A DNA stretch of 64,000 nt from an uncultured Bacilli bacterium (GCA_934122275.1 CAKOWI010000002.1:64762-128761), one strand, 5' to 3'. Numbered from the stretch's first letter, positions 4,049 to 58,049 are shown. Translations and numbers: made by a program. The notes: generated by a model not told the origin, from the sequence alone.

Positions 4049-5103
4049 TATGAAAAAAATAGTATTACGATTAGATCAAGTGCTGCTGAATATCTGACTT
4101 TTATTGCCGCAACCGGAACTGATAAAGAAACAATTGAAGTAAGATATGAACATGAAAATATTTGGCTTACTCAAAAAATGTTATCAACTCTCTATAATGT
4201 AGAAATAAATACAATAAATTATCATATTAAAAAAATATATAATGATAATGAATTGAAAGAAGAATCAACTATTCGAAAATTTCGAATAGTTCAAAAGGAA
4301 GGAAATAGGAAAGTATCAAGGGATGTAGTTCATTATAATTTGCAAATGATTATAGCAATTGGATTTAAAGTGGATAATGAACGTGCAGTTCAATTTCGAA
4401 AATGGGTTAATGAAATAGTGAAAGAATATACTATTAAAGGTTTTGCAATGGATGATGAAAGACTAAAAAATGGTGGTTCTATTTTAACGGAAAAATATTT
4501 CGATGAATTACTTGAAAGAATTAGGGAAATAAGGCTCTCTGAAAGAAGATTTTACCAAAAAATAACTGATATATATGCTACAAGTATTGATTATGATAAA
4601 AACTCAAAAATAACTTTGGAATTTTTTAAAAAAGTTCAAAATAAAATGCACTATTCTGTAACTGAAAATACTGCAGCAGAAATTATATATAATGGGGCAG
4701 ATTCTAAGAAAGAACATATGGGGCTTACTAATTGGGAGGCATCACCAAATGGTAAAATTATCAAAAGTGATGTTGTTATTGCTAAAAATTATTAACTGAA
4801 GAAGAGTTATATTCATTAAGGAGAATTGTATCTGCTTATCTTGACTTAGCCGAAAGTATGGCAGTAAGACATTTACCTATGACAATGGAAGATTGGACTG
4901 ATAAATTAGATGAATTTTTAAAACTTACTGATAGAGAAATATTACAAGATGCTGGTAAAATATCACATAAAATAGCGTGTGATAAAGCAATAACTGAATT
5001 TGAAAAATATAGAATTATTCAAGATAAATTATATGAATCAGATTTTGATAAATATTTAATTGAGCTTGAAAAAGTTGAAAGAAGTGATGAAAATGAGCGA
5101 TAA
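4049..5103 (+). pseudogene. RhuM-family (virulence protein RhuM / DinD-associated) gene, disrupted by two frameshifts
   Basis: Three consecutive reading frames give 'IRSSAAEYLTFIAATG..IEVRYEHENIWLTQKML', then 4178-4795 (205 aa), then 'TEEELYSLRRIVSAYLDLAESMAVRHL..' (4797-5103). Frame changes occur at 4075-4085 and at a T-run at 4792-4797 ('tatta' where 'tattta' would restore the frame). Confidence 0.7.
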
Positions 5104-5275
5104 TAAAACAAATATCAACTGGTAAGTGGGGAGTTATGAAAAAACACTATTAAAACCTTGAAAATAAAAGAAAAAAATAAAATTTCTTTTTACATTTTAA
5201 ACATATTTTTACTTGAAAAGTGTTGAAAAAATAAATGTGCAGGAGTTATGAAAAACAATAGAAAGGATGTGAATT

Positions 5276-6286
5276 ATGCTAGATAAAAATTTTAAAGATA
5301 TTATTAGTAATATTAAAGAAGAAATTATAAATACGCAAATTAAAACTATGCAAGAAGTTAATAGTAATTTAATTATGTTGTATTTTAAATTAGGAAAAAT
5401 TGTTTCAGAAAACAAACAATATGGAAATAATTTTACGAAGCAAGTGTCAACAGAACTTAAATTAACTTTTCCTAATATGAAAGGTTTTTCTGAAAGAAAT
5501 ATAAGGTCAATGAGATTATTCTATGAAGAATATGCTGATGATAAAAAATGGCAACAACTTGTTGCCAAATTACCTTGGGGACATAATTTGTTACTAATTG
5601 AAAAAATTAAAGATAAGGATATTAGAAAAATATATGCCGAAAATACGATTAAAAATGGATGGAGTAGAAATGTACTAGCTATTCAAATTGAAACAGAATT
5701 TCATAAAAGAGTAGGAAATAGTAACAATAATTTTAATGCAATGTTACCTCCAAAAGATAGTGATTTAGTGAATAATACTATAAAAGATCCGTATATTTTT
5801 GATTTTATTACATTAAAAGAAGAATATAAGGAAAAAGAATTGGAAACAGCTTTAATAAATAAAATAAGAAATGTATTACTAGAATTAGGAAAAGGCTTTA
5901 GTTTTGTCGGAAATCAATACAAAATTTCAGTTGATAATCAAGATTTTTATATTGATTTGCTATTTTATCATTTGGAACTTAGATGTTATGTAGTTGTTGA
6001 ATTAAAAGCAAGTGAATTTAAACCAGAATATATAGGACAATTAGGATTTTATGTAACAGCAGTTAATGAAACAATAAAAAAAGAATGTGATGCACCTACG
6101 ATTGGTTTATTATTATGTAGAGGAAAGAATAGGTTGACGGTAGATTGGTCTTTGAAATCTACCAATGTCCCAATAGGTGTTTCAACTTATAAATTAAAAG
6201 AACAACTACCAAAAGAATTAATGGATAAATTACCAACAGAAGAAGAAATAAACCTATATTTAGATATAGATGAAACAAATGAATAG
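5276..6286 (+). CDS. DUF1016/YhcG-like PD-(D/E)xK nuclease-fold protein
   Basis: 336 aa. The C-terminal 'IDLLFYHLELRCYVVVELKASEFKPEYIGQLGFYV' fits the restriction-endonuclease-like D..E.K core typical of this family (by memory). Confidence 0.65.
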   Translation: MLDKNFKDIISNIKEEIINTQIKTMQEVNSNLIMLYFKLGKIVSENKQYGNNFTKQVSTELKLTFPNMKGFSERNIRSMRLFYEEYADDKKWQQLVAKLPWGHNLLLIEKIKDKDIRKIYAENTIKNGWSRNVLAIQIETEFHKRVGNSNNNFNAMLPPKDSDLVNNTIKDPYIFDFITLKEEYKEKELETALINKIRNVLLELGKGFSFVGNQYKISVDNQDFYIDLLFYHLELRCYVVVELKASEFKPEYIGQLGFYVTAVNETIKKECDAPTIGLLLCRGKNRLTVDWSLKSTNVPIGVSTYKLKEQLPKELMDKLPTEEEINLYLDIDETNE

Positions 6287-13186: not shown

Positions 13187-13263
13187 GTCCTCGTAGCTCA
13201 GCTGGATAGAGCACTCGCCTCCTAAGCGAGGGGTCATGCGTTCAAATCGCATCGGGGACGCCA
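13187..13263 (+). tRNA. tRNA-Arg (anticodon CCT)
   Basis: Hand-folded cloverleaf: acceptor gtcctcg/cggggac, anticodon stem ctcgc/gcgag with loop ctCCTaa, T-arm atgcg-ttcaaat-cgcat, 3' CCA. Confidence 0.88.
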
Positions 13264-18560: not shown

Positions 18561-18634
18561 GCCTCCTTAGTTAAGTGGTATAACGCAGCCATGGTAAGGC
18601 TGAATTGTAGGTCCGATTCCTACAGGAGGCACCA
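18561..18634 (+). tRNA. tRNA-Thr (anticodon GGT)
   Basis: Acceptor gcctcct/aggaggc, anticodon stem cagcc/ggctg with loop atGGTaa, T-arm gtagg-tccgatt-cctac, CCA end. Confidence 0.88.
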
Positions 18635-18816: not shown

Positions 18817-19749
18817 ATGATAGTTATCAAAACAGAAGAATTAAATAGATATATTAATGCACTACTAAATAAATCAGAGGAAGCATATTTAATGTCAATT
18901 GAGATAATAAATAAACCTACTATTAATTATAGAACTGAAGGATTTTGTTTTTTTATCTGTAATGCTTGGGAATTATTATTAAAAGCATATCTTATTAATA
19001 AAGCAAAAGATATCAATGTAATAAATTATAAAGATGGTACTAATAGAACAATTGGACTAGATGAATGTGTAGAGAAAGTTTTTACAAGTACAACAGATAA
19101 AACAAAGAACAATATTTCTTTTGTTAGAAATATTAGAAATAAAGCAACACATCTAATATTACCAGAATATGATTTTATATTATCTTCTGCTTTTCAAAGA
19201 TGTTTAACAAACTATAATAAATTTTTCAAAAAACAATTTCCAGAATATAATTTAAATGAAAAAGTAACACCATATATTGCGTTAGTTAATCCTGGAGATG
19301 ATAAAGATGTTTCATCTTTAATATTAAATCCTAGTAATTTGCTAATGCTTAAAAAAATAAAAAAAGAATTAGATTCAGATGAAAATTTAACTCAAACATT
19401 AAGATTAGTATCTACTAAAAAAGAATCAGAAGCGGATATTAAATACACAGTTGTTAAAGATGGTGGAGAAAAAGCTACAGTAATTAATGTTCCAAAAGAT
19501 ATTGATAAAACTCATCCTTATACTGCTACAGAAGTAATTAAAAAGATAAAAGAAACATTGGAGCTATCTCTAGGTCCAAATCATAAATTTACATCAAATA
19601 AATTTCAAGATATATGCAAAAGAAAGGGAATAAAGAATAATCAAGATTATTGTTATCAGTTTCCTTATTCTAAAACCAAAATTTATAAATATAGTGATAT
19701 AACAATTGAATATATTAGTCAAGTTTACATCGAAGAATTCAAGAAATAA
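18817..19749 (+). CDS. Orphan protein with Rx4H (HEPN-like) motif, possible Abi-type
   Basis: 310 aa. 'ISFVRNIRNKATHL' carries R-N-x3-H. The N-terminal 'IEIINKPTINYRTEGFCFFICNAWELLLKAYLI' resembles an uncharacterised DUF family (DUF3644-like, by memory and unverified). Confidence 0.55.
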   Translation: MIVIKTEELNRYINALLNKSEEAYLMSIEIINKPTINYRTEGFCFFICNAWELLLKAYLINKAKDINVINYKDGTNRTIGLDECVEKVFTSTTDKTKNNISFVRNIRNKATHLILPEYDFILSSAFQRCLTNYNKFFKKQFPEYNLNEKVTPYIALVNPGDDKDVSSLILNPSNLLMLKKIKKELDSDENLTQTLRLVSTKKESEADIKYTVVKDGGEKATVINVPKDIDKTHPYTATEVIKKIKETLELSLGPNHKFTSNKFQDICKRKGIKNNQDYCYQFPYSKTKIYKYSDITIEYISQVYIEEFKK

Positions 19750-52943: not shown

Positions 52944-53001
52944 TTTATTATTTGTATTAATAACATGTATATGTTATACTTAAGTTGTAAGGGTGGTAAA
53001 T

Positions 53002-53499
53002 ATGAAAAAAAGTAATAAAAAAGTATTAGCGGGATTACTAGCAGGAGGATTAATATTTTCTTTTGCAGGATGTAATATGGCTAAAGAAGAAAAAAGTGGT
53101 GAAATTGCTGTTGATGTAATACCATTTGTAAGTGAAAATGAAGAATTATCTATAATAGGCTTTGTTGATAAGAAAACACGTCAAAAAATATGGGATGAAA
53201 GATACGGTTTCTTTAGTCAAGATAAAAGTGAATTTTATGATGCTTTAACTGGAGAAACAATAAATGTTGAAGAACTAAGCAATTTTTGTGATGTTTACTT
53301 TAAGAGTTATTATAATTCTTTATCTACGGATGATAAAGAACATTTTAATAACAGAGGATGCGTATATTATGATGAATTACAAAAATATAGTGATTCATTT
53401 AAACTTGATTCAAAAGATGGCTATAGTTGGCAATTATCTCCAGTAAAGAAATTAGAAAGATATGACGGAAATACAAATCTTGAAAAACTAGATAAATAA
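53002..53499 (+). CDS. Lipoprotein
   Basis: Lipobox 'LIFSFAGC'; RBS 'aagggtgg'; 165 aa. Confidence 0.65.
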   Translation: MKKSNKKVLAGLLAGGLIFSFAGCNMAKEEKSGEIAVDVIPFVSENEELSIIGFVDKKTRQKIWDERYGFFSQDKSEFYDALTGETINVEELSNFCDVYFKSYYNSLSTDDKEHFNNRGCVYYDELQKYSDSFKLDSKDGYSWQLSPVKKLERYDGNTNLEKLDK

Positions 53500-53551
53500 G
53501 TACCTAAAATAGGTACTTTTTGTGTTATAATTTTTTAGGATGGTGAGAAGT

Positions 53552-54895
53552 ATGGAAATTAAGTTAGACGAAATGCAAGGATATTTAACTAGTGATAGAA
53601 AGTTTGATCAAAAATGTGCTTTAAAAAGCACAGGAGTTAAAGCTGCTATCTGTTACAAGGAAGAAAAAGATGGTAAGCCAGTAAATCAAGATATGATAAG
53701 GGATGAAGAATCTTTATCAACTTTAGTTATTAGAGGATTAAATACAATTTTTCAAGATCACACTACACCTAGTGAACATCAAATGGTAACTCTTGAAATG
53801 ACGGATATTCCAAAAGCATTATGTATGGTTTTAAACAATGAAAAACAGTATACAGCAGATGAAAGATCACTTAGATATACTGAAGTTAAAAAAAATGAAT
53901 ATATTTCTGATAGAGAAGTTGAATTATATAATAAATGGTTAAATATTTTATATGATGTAATTGATAAAAAGCATGGGGATTTTTATAGAAAATACAGTAA
54001 GAATGAAAGTGGTGCTAAAAAAACAATGATAAAGTTAGCACAAGAAAATGCAAGATTTATGGTAAGTGTATTTATGCCTACCTCTATAACATATACTGTT
54101 CCTTGGATTCAAATTAATAAGATAATTACTTACATGCAAAAGGTAATAGATAATCCAATGAATGACTTTGAAAAAAAATTAATACCTTATTTTAAGGAAT
54201 TTATTGATAAGTGTATTAATTTGGATGTTGCTATTACAAAAGATAGCTTGTATAGAAACTTAATTAGTGATGAAAATTTAGAATTAAAGGAAAATGTATT
54301 AAAAAAGTTTCCAGAATTTAAAAACTATAAGGGAGATAAATCGTTAGTATATAAAAATAATAAAAACGTAGACTTAAGTTTATTTGCAAATAGAAATCCT
54401 TTTTCTGGTATAAATGGTAATAATGAATATGGATATAATATTTCTTATAATAATTTAGAGTCTTTTGTTTGTTTAGCACAAGAACAAAGACATAGAACTT
54501 GTAATTGTGAAATGCTTATTCCAGATGAATTTTCGTCTTATATACCACCAATTATTTTGGATGATGATAAATTAATTAGTATGTGGGTTAATGACATTAC
54601 TTCTGTTAAAGAAGTTTATCCTAACGGGCAATTAGTTAAAGTTAATAGGTGTGCAGCTTTAAAAGATATACTAAAGTTTATTGCACAAGAAAGAGCTTGT
54701 GATAGGGCACAATTAGAAATAGAGAAGGTATACGTTGATGATATGATACCAGATATATATGAAAATTTAAAAAAGCAAGGTAATGATGCTCTTGCAGATA
54801 ATGTTTATCCTTATGTTAAAAAGTTAAGATGTTCATTTCCAGGATATCATTGTCCAGGTACTTGTGGTCATCCTAGAATTAATAGAGACTTATAA
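53552..54895 (+). CDS. Divergent, apparently tandem ThyX-like (flavin-dependent thymidylate synthase fold) protein with Cys/His-rich C-terminus
   Basis: Numbering from the 53540 ORF start. aa 74-113 'HTTPSEHQMVTLEMTDIPKALCMVLNNEKQYTADERSLRY' aligns to the ThyX 'H.SV.EH...RHR.......S.RY' block with NEK in place of RHR. aa 166-200 is 'ARFMVSVFMPTSITYTVPWIQINKI'. A second core at aa 311-319 is 'CLAQEQRHR'. aa 368-397 'VNRCAALKDILKFIAQERACDRAQLEIEK' resembles the ThyX C-terminal 'VNxR.L..F...R....AQxEI'. Tail is 'CSFPGYHCPGTCGHP'. Confidence 0.55.
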   Translation: MEIKLDEMQGYLTSDRKFDQKCALKSTGVKAAICYKEEKDGKPVNQDMIRDEESLSTLVIRGLNTIFQDHTTPSEHQMVTLEMTDIPKALCMVLNNEKQYTADERSLRYTEVKKNEYISDREVELYNKWLNILYDVIDKKHGDFYRKYSKNESGAKKTMIKLAQENARFMVSVFMPTSITYTVPWIQINKIITYMQKVIDNPMNDFEKKLIPYFKEFIDKCINLDVAITKDSLYRNLISDENLELKENVLKKFPEFKNYKGDKSLVYKNNKNVDLSLFANRNPFSGINGNNEYGYNISYNNLESFVCLAQEQRHRTCNCEMLIPDEFSSYIPPIILDDDKLISMWVNDITSVKEVYPNGQLVKVNRCAALKDILKFIAQERACDRAQLEIEKVYVDDMIPDIYENLKKQGNDALADNVYPYVKKLRCSFPGYHCPGTCGHPRINRDL

Positions 54896-54926
54896 AAAAG
54901 AAACACGCTTGTGTTTCTTTTTTTAA
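54894..54926. terminator. Bidirectional terminator between convergent genes
   Basis: A-run, then agaaacac-gctt-gtgtttct, then T-run. Confidence 0.7.
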
Positions 54927-55936
54927 TAATCATTTAAATCAACATTTTCCTTATCTAAGTATTCTTTAAATTCAACTTTAAATTTTTCTGCTTCTTTTTT
55001 TATAACATCAGAATATACACTTTGACAATTCATAATTGCTTTATATATGTGCTTAAATGTTACAACTTCACTATTATCAAATTTAGCATAGCTAAATGCC
55101 TTCGATAATAAAGCTAAAGCATTATCAGGATATCTTGAACCTAGTTCGTAAATTCTTTTATATTCACTAGTCATATCAACTATAAATTTCATAATATTTT
55201 CTATTGTAAAAGTAGAGTATTGTAATTTAACACCCGTTTTCTTTTCTATTCTTGGATAAGAACCCATTAGAATTTTAACGGTAGTTTCTGCATCCGGTTC
55301 TTCAACATCTATTTTTTCAAAACGTCTTAGAAATGCTTTATCTCTTATTAAATACTGATTATATTCATCAAGTGTTGTTGCACCTATTACTTTTATATCT
55401 CCTCTTGAAAGAGCTGGTTTCATAGCATTTAAAAAATCAGTTCCACTTTTTCTTGATTCTATTACAAGAGTATGTATCTCATCTATAAATAGTATTGTAT
55501 TGCTCGCATTTTCAAGTTCATTAAGTAAAATATTAATTCTTAATTCTTCAGTTCCATCATCGCTTGTATATGTTCCTAATAATTGTGATGTATTAACTTT
55601 TATAATATCATAATTACTAATTGCTTTAGGTACAGTATTATTTTGAATTTTATACGCAATACCTTCTACAATAGCAGTTTTACCAATACCAGCTTTACCA
55701 ACTAATATTGCAGATTTATCTGGAGTAAGTAAAGTTAATATTGTTTTTTCAATTTCACTATCTCTAGCTATAGCAGGATTAGTAACATAGGTTTTAGTAC
55801 TTAAATTTTCTCCATATTTTTCAAGAACACTTTTTCTTTTCTTATCTTCTTTTTTTTCATCTGTATTTTTATCATTATTACTAACGTCATCAAAAGTTAA
55901 AGTTTCATCTTCTACAATATCAAACATATCATCCAT
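54923..55936 (-). CDS. Clp/Hsp100 D1-module-only AAA+ ATPase (no N-domain, no D2)
   Basis: Collinear with the ClpB/ClpC D1 module: 'LEKYG.NL', Walker A 'ILVGKAGIGKTAIVEGIA', 'ILFIDEIHTLV', 'PALSRGDIKVIGATTLDEY', 'RRFEKI', then an alpha-helical lid; 337 aa. Confidence 0.8.
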   Translation of the reverse strand: MDDMFDIVEDETLTFDDVSNNDKNTDEKKEDKKRKSVLEKYGENLSTKTYVTNPAIARDSEIEKTILTLLTPDKSAILVGKAGIGKTAIVEGIAYKIQNNTVPKAISNYDIIKVNTSQLLGTYTSDDGTEELRINILLNELENASNTILFIDEIHTLVIESRKSGTDFLNAMKPALSRGDIKVIGATTLDEYNQYLIRDKAFLRRFEKIDVEEPDAETTVKILMGSYPRIEKKTGVKLQYSTFTIENIMKFIVDMTSEYKRIYELGSRYPDNALALLSKAFSYAKFDNSEVVTFKHIYKAIMNCQSVYSDVIKKEAEKFKVEFKEYLDKENVDLNDY

Positions 55937-56112
55937 ACTTATACCTTCTTTCTAGATAATTATAACATGATTTTTAATTATTTTATTTGTAAATATACAC
56001 TTAAAATAAAAAAATTAATTAATTAATAAAAAATACTTTAAAAAATGTATAATTGTGTTACAATATTACTTGTAATGTTACTAGATAAATAATTATATAA
56101 GAGGTGTGTAGT

Positions 56113-56730: not shown

Positions 56731-56759
56731 AGCTTAAAGCTCTTTTTTTGGAGGTAGTT

Positions 56760-58049
56760 ATGAAAGTTGCAATTTATACTTTAGGTTGTAAAGTTAATAC
56801 ATATGAAAGTGAATACGTAGCAAATGAATTTATCAAAAGAGGTTATGAATTAACTTCTTTTGATAATTTGGATTCTGATATATACGTAATTAATACTTGT
56901 ACTGTTACTAATACGAGTGATCAAAAATCAAGGAAAATGATAAGACAAGCTAGAGCTAAAAATAAAAATGCTGTTGTAGTAGCAATGGGATGTTTTACTC
57001 AAATAAGAAGTAATGATAATGCTATAATAGATTATATTGATATAGTAATTGGTAATAATAAGAAAAGTAAAATAGTAGATTTAGTTGAAGAATATATTAA
57101 TAATAAACAGAAAATAGTAAACATAAAAGATATTAAAGATGAACAATTTGATGATATGGAAATTAAGCATTTTAATACTAGAACAAGAGCTTTAGTTAAG
57201 ATTGAAGATGGGTGCGAGAATTATTGTTCATACTGTATTATACCTTATGTAAGAGGAAAAGTAAGAAGTAAGGATCCTAAAAAGGTAATAGATGAGGTTA
57301 ATAGATTAGTTTCTAATGGATATAAAGAGATAGTTTTAACTGGTATTCATACTGGACATTATGGTTCAGATTTGCATGATTATGATTTTAGTGATTTATT
57401 GTTAGAACTTGAAAAAATAAATGGACTAGATAGAATAAGAATATCTTCAATAGAAATAACGGAATTAAATGATAAGTTTTTAAATGTGTTAAAAAAATCT
57501 AAAAAAATAGTAGATCATATTCATATTCCACTTCAAGCTGGAAGTAATCATATATTAAAGCTTATGAATAGAAAGTATGATAAAGATTATTATATAAATA
57601 AAATAAGTAAGATTAGAACAATAAGACCAGATATAGCTATTACTACAGATGTTATTGTTGGATTTCCTGGTGAAAGTGATTCTGATTTTAATGAAACTTT
57701 AGACTTTGTTAAGGAAGTTAATTTTGCTGGAGGACATGTATTTCCTTTTTCAAAGAGAAATGGTACTTTAGCTGCTAAAATGAATGGTCAATTAACTAAA
57801 GAAGAAAAACATATTAGATGTAAGAAATTAATTAGTTTATTTGATACTTTAGAAGATGATTATTATAAGAAACACATAAATTCGGTTGTAACTGTAATTG
57901 TAGAAACATATGATAATGGATATTTAACTGGACATAGTAGTAATTATTTAAAAGTTAAATTTAAAGGCTGTGAAAACCTATTAAGTAAAGAAGTAAACGT
58001 TAAAATACAAAGTATGGAAACAAAGCTTTTAATTGGAGAAATGCTATAA
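56760..58049 (+). CDS. mtaB: Radical-SAM methylthiotransferase (MtaB/YqeV-like)
   Basis: N-terminal MTTase domain 'YTLGCKVN..E', radical SAM 'CENYCSYC', TRAM-like C-terminus; lies downstream of the dnaK locus as yqeV does in Bacillus. Confidence 0.8.
   Translation: MKVAIYTLGCKVNTYESEYVANEFIKRGYELTSFDNLDSDIYVINTCTVTNTSDQKSRKMIRQARAKNKNAVVVAMGCFTQIRSNDNAIIDYIDIVIGNNKKSKIVDLVEEYINNKQKIVNIKDIKDEQFDDMEIKHFNTRTRALVKIEDGCENYCSYCIIPYVRGKVRSKDPKKVIDEVNRLVSNGYKEIVLTGIHTGHYGSDLHDYDFSDLLLELEKINGLDRIRISSIEITELNDKFLNVLKKSKKIVDHIHIPLQAGSNHILKLMNRKYDKDYYINKISKIRTIRPDIAITTDVIVGFPGESDSDFNETLDFVKEVNFAGGHVFPFSKRNGTLAAKMNGQLTKEEKHIRCKKLISLFDTLEDDYYKKHINSVVTVIVETYDNGYLTGHSSNYLKVKFKGCENLLSKEVNVKIQSMETKLLIGEML

Follow-up and report, generated by a model that had tools for sequence, protein, structure and literature searches.

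Can a protein in which the ThyX signature is divided between two halves of one chain be a working flavin-dependent thymidylate synthase, and if so, how would its active sites be put together? The gene that raises this question lies in a 64,000-nucleotide stretch of DNA (the window) from an uncultured Bacilli bacterium. Its features are collected in Table 1 and its residues are compared with those of Thermotoga maritima (Tm) ThyX in Table 2. Residue numbers refer to the 447-aa form of the protein throughout; adding 4 converts them to the 451-aa form.

Gene model and local signals

The initial annotation described positions 53552-54895 as encoding 451 aa. The coordinates are correct for the 447-aa form, whose ATG at 53552 (MEIKL) is the start used by the gene callers and by all homologues, whereas the residue numbers fit the 451-aa open reading frame that begins at 53540. 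Every sequence string quoted there (HTTPSEH, NEK, SLRY, RHR, RACDRAQLE and CSFPGYHCPGTC) was present at the expected place. The terminator-like hairpin behind the upstream lipoprotein gene implies that the ThyX-like gene has its own transcription; hairpin terminators were observed three times in the region, compared with 0.7 expected from shuffled sequences. A candidate extended -10 element, TGTTATAAT, precedes the start codon by 21 nt; the promoter scan held no entry for it because a -35 hexamer is absent. The AlphaFold2 model of the 447-aa protein, calculated from an alignment of 89 sequences, reached a pLDDT of 93.1 and a pTM of 0.91.

Table 1. Coordinates of the fused ThyX-like gene, its domains, motifs and upstream signals in the window.
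Feature	Position	Strand	Remark
Terminator-like hairpin and T-run, ends the upstream lipoprotein gene	53498-53518	+	9-bp stem
Extended -10-like element TGTTATAAT (TGnTATAAT)	53523-53531	+	read from sequence, predicted
ORF, 451 aa	53540-54895	+	upstream ATG
Shine-Dalgarno-like GGTGAG, likely ribosome-binding site	53542-53547	+	4 nt upstream of ATG 53552
CDS of the fused two-domain ThyX-like protein, 447 aa plus stop	53552-54895	+	gene callers and homologues
N-terminal domain, aa 1-228, complete ThyX domain	53552-54235	+	
HTTPSEH, equivalent to Tm H53-H59, flavin/folate-side His motif	53759-53779	+	hhalign
NEK at the ThyX RHR position (Tm 78-80), within a conserved LNN(E) motif	53837-53845	+	hhalign
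SLRY, counterpart of Tm S88-G-R90-Y91 (loop that binds dUMP, with the Tyr lid)	53867-53878	+	hhalign
QENAR, counterpart of Tm E144..R147; R168 is the Arg for the dUMP phosphate	54041-54055	+	hhalign
IQINK; I186 under Tm R165, the FAD-phosphate Arg from subunit B	54107-54121	+	hhalign
Variable helical linker/insertion, aa 229-265	54236-54346	+	
C-terminal domain, aa 266-421, truncated ThyX fold	54347-54814	+	
RHR (R313-H314-R315), sole RHR of the protein	54488-54496	+	Q310 ahead of RHR corresponds to Tm Q75
RACDRAQLE; R381 equivalent to Tm R174 (uracil/FAD Arg), E389 to Tm E182	54692-54718	+	hhalign
C427-x6-C434-x3-C438 in the C-terminal tail (CSFPGYHCPGTC)	54830-54865	+	with C383, putative four-Cys metal site

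Two ThyX domains in one chain

The N-half matched Pfam Thy1 (PF02511) with 37.4 bits against a gathering threshold of 24.8 (E 2.8e-9; aa 33-187 in the numbering of the 451-aa ORF), and the thyX equivalog model TIGR02170 gave 30.9 bits, below its cut-off of 87.9. When aa 1-228 were compared by hhalign with an alignment of Thermotogae ThyX, the match extended over Tm 1-214 with Prob 98.2 and E 3.4e-14; the T. maritima sequence used (TM0449) is 100% identical to the PDB chain. NEK was set exactly under RHR78-80 and SLRY under SGRY88-91, as expected from the initial proposal that NEK replaces RHR. The residue-for-residue agreement in length claimed alongside it stood for the NEK/SLRY register but not for the spacing between the His motif and the RHR position, which is one residue off T. 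maritima. The N-half thus reads NEK-x7-S-L-R-Y, so that the contiguous RHRx7-8S(x)RY signature is absent, and the N-domain is devoid of RHR in all 158 members of the conservation set, which reaches down to about 33% identity. The QENAR motif, with the retained Arg of E..AR, had been missed initially. The conserved Arg of 'NAR' had been sought in the Lys of INKII; this assignment was not borne out, since Tm R165 aligns with I186 and the Lys (K190) follows four residues later, one helical turn further on.

The C-half (aa 262-447) was aligned by hhalign colinearly with Tm 32-211 (E 7.8e-4), with RHR, VN and (L/E)R...AQxEI in register. This agrees with the second core, containing RHR and 'VNR...AQLEIEK', that had been recognized in the initial annotation, and on the strength of the colinear alignment and the motifs in register the C-half is a second ThyX domain, truncated at its N-terminus. 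Scoring the Thy1 profile on each half, as the initial annotation suggested, gave a split outcome: the N-half scored as stated above, whereas Pfam returned no match for the C-half alone at E values up to 10, a result that is overridden by its ThyX fold. The RHR of the C-half is followed by TCNCEMLIP, without the Ser, Arg and Tyr of the ThyX signature. Most of the relatives with about 400 aa lack the linker that joins the two domains.

Comparison of the N-half with the C-half by hhalign, using either close or diverse alignments, revealed no similarity (Prob below 1%). The architecture could be the product of an internal duplication or of a fusion of two divergent genes; the lack of detectable similarity between the halves means that the event was ancient or that the genes were already divergent when they were fused, and a duplication is not demonstrable from a half-against-half hhalign comparison of the sequences.

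Table 2. Residues of T. maritima ThyX and their equivalents in the two halves of the window protein.
T. maritima	N-half	C-half
H53	H70	lost
E58	E75	-
Q75	-	Q310
R78-H79-R80 (RHR)	N96-E97-K98 (lost)	R313-H314-R315
E86	E104	-
S88	S106	lost
R90	R108	lost
Y91	Y109	lost
E144	E165	-
R147	R168	lost
N163	-	N365
R165	I186 (Arg in 104/158 relatives)	-
R174	no equivalent	R381
H178	-	R385
E182	-	E389

Complementary residue sets and predicted assembly

Each ThyX active site receives contributions from three subunits (PMC6514825). Subunit A provides RHR and Mtb Arg199 (Tm R174) for FAD and uracil, subunit B provides Mtb Ser71 and Arg190 (Tm His-motif region and R165) for the FAD phosphates, and subunit C provides Mtb Arg87, Ser105, Arg107 and Tyr108 (Tm S88, R90 and Y91), with the S.RY loop and the phosphate-binding arginines, for dUMP (PMC6514825). 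Under this assignment of roles (PMC6514825), the alignment showed that only the A set remains in the C-half, while the N-half has retained only the B and C sets. Across both halves the full set of FAD and dUMP contacts is present by alignment, with Ile in place of the B-role Arg, and all dUMP-contact residues of ThyX are retained. H70, S106, R108, Y109, E165, R168, R313-H314-R315, R381 and E389 are invariant or nearly so among the 158 diverse members, and H70, S106, R108, Y109, E165 and R168 are classed as invariant; the motifs did not arise by chance. The residues kept by each half therefore suit composite sites as defined by these roles (PMC6514825), in line with the earlier suggestion of a fused pseudo-dimer with half-dead sites.

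We predict, with a probability of about 0.7, that the protein functions as a flavin-dependent thymidylate synthase of the ThyX type built from two specialized ThyX-fold domains in one chain. With the A role open only to the C-half, and roles B and C only to the N-half, a homodimer would form a pseudo-tetramer with two complete and two dead sites. In a D2 tetramer the C-halves would occupy positions A and D and the N-halves positions B and C, the A-D two-fold axis being the true homodimer axis. The complete sites would then be (A,B,C) and (D,C,B), and those that need an RHR from an N-half would be dead. Each complete site would combine RHR and R381 of one C-half with H70, S106, R108, Y109 and R168 drawn from two N-halves, and one FAD per chain is predicted. 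The chemistry would be that of ThyX, in which the methylene group of CH2-THF is passed to N5 of reduced FAD and on to C5 of dUMP to give dTMP. With I186 in place of the B-role Arg, FAD binding of the window protein may differ, judging from the alignment.

A putative four-cysteine metal site

Four cysteines, C383, C427, C434 and C438, are each shared by 154-158 of the 158 members, whereas the alignment of Thermotoga ThyX lacks any equivalent of them. C383 belongs to RACDRAQLE, two residues past R381, and the other three lie in the C-terminal tail. This tail was modelled as coil with pLDDT values of 81-95 in the full-length protein, compared with 53-75 when the C-half was modelled alone; the drop upon removal of the N-half suggests that the tail packs over the domain boundary in the model. 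The histidines of the tail are not conserved in distant members. A fifth invariant cysteine, C34, falls on a serine of T. maritima (Ser30, 'ARVS' motif) and is for this reason probably not part of the metal site.

The conservation of the four cysteines suggests a putative Zn or Fe-S site. The C-x6-C-x3-C spacing in the tail is unlike that of classical CxxC zinc knuckles. The metal could be a structural Zn that pins the tail, or it could be an Fe-S cluster that gives electrons to FAD; it is a matter of speculation that the position of the cysteines by the flavin-side helix would suit electron transfer. The more specific proposal of an Fe-S cluster beside the flavin, with ferredoxin, flavodoxin or another low-potential donor replacing NADPH as reductant, is put forward tentatively, and we consider it rather improbable. 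An Fe-S enzyme, a MiaB-like radical SAM protein, is encoded in the same organism at 56748-58049. A gene for a ZIP zinc transporter was seen near the fused gene in 10 of the 81 related loci; all ten belong to one clade and form a single synteny block, so that this is a weak indication. We know of no characterized ThyX with a conserved four-Cys site.

Size and distribution of the family

A word-seeded search returned 1274 clusters, the best 120 of which were full-length (425-466 aa, 40-98% identity). In addition, 1.84 billion representatives were searched exhaustively with a profile, which yielded 646 clusters, formed at 50% identity, at E <= 1e-3 and 273 at E <= 1e-30. Most relatives found in this way comprise 380-420 aa and were matched as two stretches, 1-227 and about 265-440, which indicates that the two-part architecture is conserved and that the middle segment is variable. 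When distant members were used as seeds, at least 4417 further clusters at 90% identity were recovered in the 400-aa branch. The names attached to relatives are all automatic ('MAG: FAD-dependent thymidylate synthase [Bacilli / Tenericutes bacterium]', 'thymidylate synthase ThyX' or 'hypothetical protein').

Among GTDB contigs with one genome per species, relatives were found in at least 517 species genomes. The 80 loci listed out of the 517 belong to MAGs of gut or rumen origin, for which the usual labels are Bacilli, Mycoplasmatota, Mollicutes, Tenericutes or Erysipelotrichaceae; a few of these 80 carry the labels Muribaculaceae, Clostridium or Paratractidigestivibacter, and one is 'Mycoplasma sp. 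CAG:956'. Five distant relatives (26-32% identity) were encountered on IMG/VR contigs, one of 4 kb and four of 118-268 kb, including a 495-aa protein (L093, 4839-6326) with the same architecture down to the four cysteines. A search of PHROGs with the window protein gave noise only, tblastn against isolated phages and plasmids failed to match either the window protein or its homologue on a viral contig, and sequence searches of the PDB with the single protein and with the profile gave no ThyX match.

Genomic neighbourhood and linkage to thymidylate kinase

The window has a GC content of 26% and nearly all of its genes lie on one strand. They include TopA, RNase HII, RuvAB, QueA/Tgt, a class-II aminoacyl-tRNA synthetase, HrcA-GrpE-DnaK-DnaJ and RpoD, and the closer neighbours of the fused gene encode MetRS, an SLT-domain protein, an AAA ATPase, the MiaB-like protein and RecD2. 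A phage or conjugative element, for which the low GC content, the single-strand gene order and the SLT-domain neighbour could be taken as signs, was rejected given that the window holds housekeeping genes (TopA, RuvAB, DnaK, RpoD, MetRS).

In related loci elsewhere the neighbours are tmk, ClpC or Mur ligases. Clustering of the ORFs from 81 related loci identified a single widely recurrent neighbour, a thymidylate kinase of ~224 aa (PF02223, E 1.1e-24). The tmk gene lies -34 to +89 bp from the fused gene in 25 of the 81 loci and 567 bp upstream of it in one more, on the same strand in 26/26. Sorted by identity to the query, adjacency was seen in 12/29 loci at 40-56% and in 14/39 below 40%; it was seen in 0/13 loci of the clade to which the window belongs (at least 57% identity), and the window itself is without tmk. 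This linkage suggests that the family is tied to dTMP. The window and the ~1.1 Mb of sequence from related loci contain neither thyA nor folA nor a canonical thyX; they cover about 1% of each genome, too little to speak for whole genomes.

Alternative readings

The initial annotation had raised, next to the pseudo-dimer, a non-catalytic derivative, and a flavin- or nucleotide-binding sensor or regulator descended from ThyX would indeed accommodate a protein in which neither half has the full motif set, the contiguous RHRx7-8S is absent and the window copy has lost the B-role Arg to I186. The losses are, however, exactly complementary, and the full catalytic set, conserved in trans, consists of residues that are invariant or nearly so in the 158 members, a pattern that would make little sense in a protein without catalysis; tmk lies beside the gene in 26 of the 81 loci, and Pfam detected no DNA-binding or signalling domain. 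We therefore regard a non-catalytic protein as very improbable. The protein might also be an ordinary ThyX orthologue whose C-terminal extension is long but uninformative. Such an orthologue would agree with the pipeline names 'FAD-dependent thymidylate synthase' and 'thymidylate synthase ThyX' and with the single Thy1 that Pfam finds, but the supposed extension contains the sole RHR and the Arg174 equivalent and folds as a second ThyX domain, and the N-domain is without RHR in 158/158 members, so that a homo-oligomer of N-domains could not bind FAD canonically. There is thus hardly any room for this interpretation.

A catalytic protein with an altered substrate is a less remote proposition, though still an unlikely one: a ThyX-derived methylase or hydroxymethylase could act on UMP, dCMP, CMP or nucleic acid, with the four cysteines forming a substrate-binding zinc finger. 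PolB, the UMP/dUMP C5-methylase of Streptomyces cacaoi (4P5A), is a ThyX paralogue of polyoxin biosynthesis; it is a single-domain homo-oligomer from a nucleoside-antibiotic cluster, whereas the present gene encodes two domains in a housekeeping/tmk context. Retention of all dUMP contacts, the operon-like linkage to tmk in 26/81 loci, which points to dTMP, and the location on a housekeeping chromosome rather than in a nucleoside-antibiotic or DNA-modification cluster argue against a changed substrate and for the ThyX-type thymidylate synthase.

Relation to described ThyX proteins

Canonical ThyX (PF02511, TIGR02170, EC 2.1.1.148; TM0449, 2AF6) has the fold that occurs twice in this protein, and its residues H53, Q75, RHR, E86, S88, R90, Y91, E144, R147, R174 and E182 all have equivalents here. 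It consists of one domain of about 220-250 aa, assembles into a homotetramer whose four sites are identical, and has a contiguous RHRx7-8S. In the present protein, by contrast, RHR and the R174 equivalent are confined to the C-half and the His motif, S.RY and E..AR to the N-half, four extra invariant cysteines are present, and a dimer with two live sites is predicted. C. trachomatis CT632 ThyX, which is ~529 aa long and thus roughly double the canonical size, may be a two-domain form too. Chlamydial ThyX (C. trachomatis CT632) is reported to be too divergent for ThyX phylogenies, from which it was omitted (PMC6171736), and to be active in NADPH-oxidase assays (PMC3498832).

Foldseek against BFVD returned full-length matches to 'thymidylate synthases' of the phages Ma-LMM01 (491 aa) and SP-15 (413 aa). 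The long SP-15 'thymidylate synthetase' was not found in the first 50 kb, where only a 278-aa Thy1 is encoded. The Ma-LMM01 match is the uncharacterized ORF20, a 'putative thymidylate synthase', of this Microcystis phage (BAF36111.1, AB231700 15717-17192; Foldseek E 1.5e-8, TM 0.52, identity about 10%). In its N-half FNTM stands where RHR would be, and ERSTRY is kept; its C-half contains NRHRS (by eye and hhalign), and Pfam Thy1 is found in the N-half only, as in the window protein. Unlike the window gene it is a phage gene, and its product, for which the kinship of the C-half was judged by eye, has neither the Cys-rich tail nor an equivalent of C383. The occurrence of the split-motif fusion in Ma-LMM01 without the Cys tail means that the fusion is older and wider than the gut family and that the gut family itself added the Cys site.

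The literature searched turned up neither a fused, duplicated or degenerate ThyX nor a metal centre in ThyX, with ThyX of RF39/Tenericutes and the architecture of chlamydial ThyX among the topics covered. The initial impression of an undescribed family is upheld to this extent, but annotation pipelines do name the proteins ThyX and the cyanophage has the same fusion; what apparently has not been described yet is the fused two-domain architecture together with the four-Cys site.

Implications

ThyX is an antibacterial target, and both the requirement for three subunits at each site and the reduction of its flavin in vivo are debated. The family constitutes a natural experiment in which the subunit roles have been sorted onto two domains, showing which residues each partner supplies, and half the usual number of flavin sites is predicted for it. 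If true, an Fe-S cluster beside the flavin would be an answer to the question of ThyX flavin reduction in vivo, found in a natural 'heterodimerized' ThyX with two live sites. The fused ThyX probably makes the dTMP of a large and very abundant uncultured gut group (RF39-like Bacilli/Mycoplasmatota), and a correct reading of this gene is needed for work on inhibitors, for metabolic models and for the rules by which RF39-like genomes are annotated.

Relatives of the fused ThyX in viral contigs and phages

The N-half of the fused ThyX carries a fifth invariant cysteine, C34, which aligned to Ser30 in the 'ARVS' motif of T. maritima ThyX. Distant relatives of the fused protein were found on viral-classified contigs (L090-L094), one of which is 4 kb long and four of which span 118-268 kb, and a tblastn search of the isolated phages in INPHARED detected a fused-ThyX copy in none of them. 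ORF20 of the cyanophage Ma-LMM01 shares the two-domain layout with split motifs, i.e. FNTM...ERSTRY in the N-half and NRHRS in the C-half, but lacks the Cys tail of the fused ThyX. A 413-aa 'thymidylate synthetase' of Bacillus phage SP-15 was matched over its full length to the fused ThyX by Foldseek; this phage also encodes a separate Thy1 protein (see table).

Genomic context of the fused ThyX

GC content was 23-30% across the whole window (1-64000). The genes are co-oriented almost throughout, a pattern of the kind seen on a leading strand well away from both origin and terminus, and GC skew was strongly positive in all 2-kb bins except 54001-56000, the bin with one minus-strand gene. This sole sizeable minus-strand gene of the window encodes the AAA ATPase, which is convergent with the ThyX-like gene at a spacing of 27 bp. 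The same convergent pair was seen in 6 related loci, and in another clade (6 loci) a full-size ClpC-like gene (~715 aa) precedes the ThyX-like gene at a distance of 46-91 bp. The recurrence of a ClpC-type gene beside the ThyX-like gene may reflect old synteny or a functional link. On its upstream side the ThyX-like gene adjoins a predicted lipoprotein gene, for whose product no Pfam family was found. Small island-like genes lie amid the housekeeping genes of the window and may be defence or mobile remnants.

In the subclade of 459-466-aa proteins, the fused ThyX belongs to a conserved block made up of a ZIP zinc transporter, a membrane thioredoxin-like protein, the fused ThyX itself, thymidylate kinase and a YqeG-like HAD phosphatase. 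The presence of the ZIP transporter, in this one synteny block only, could hint at the metal bound by the putative Cys4 site.

Features of the window, related loci and phages
Feature	Location	Strand	Remarks
RhuM-family, DUF1016/YhcG nuclease-like and DUF3644/EC042_2821 proteins	window about 4858-6286 and 18817-19749		small genes, island-like
tRNA-Arg(CCT)	window 13187-13263		isolated, between housekeeping genes
tRNA-Thr(GGT)	window 18561-18634		isolated, between housekeeping genes
Predicted lipoprotein	window 52993-53499	+	168 aa; signal peptide ends ...FAGC
Hairpin terminator	window 53498-53518		3' of lipoprotein gene
C34 of fused ThyX	window 53651-53653		kept in 157/158 members
AAA ATPase	window 54923-55936	-	337 aa, single-domain; resembles ClpC N-terminal module
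Block examples, related loci	L035 319-1143; L039 9380-9919; L036 12034-12522		459-466-aa subclade
Fused-ThyX relative	L093 4839-6326		495 aa; four cysteines present; IMG/VR contig, 268 kb
Microcystis phage Ma-LMM01 ORF20	L096 15717-17192	-	491 aa; 'putative thymidylate synthase'
Bacillus phage SP-15 Thy1	KT624200 5512-6348		278 aa
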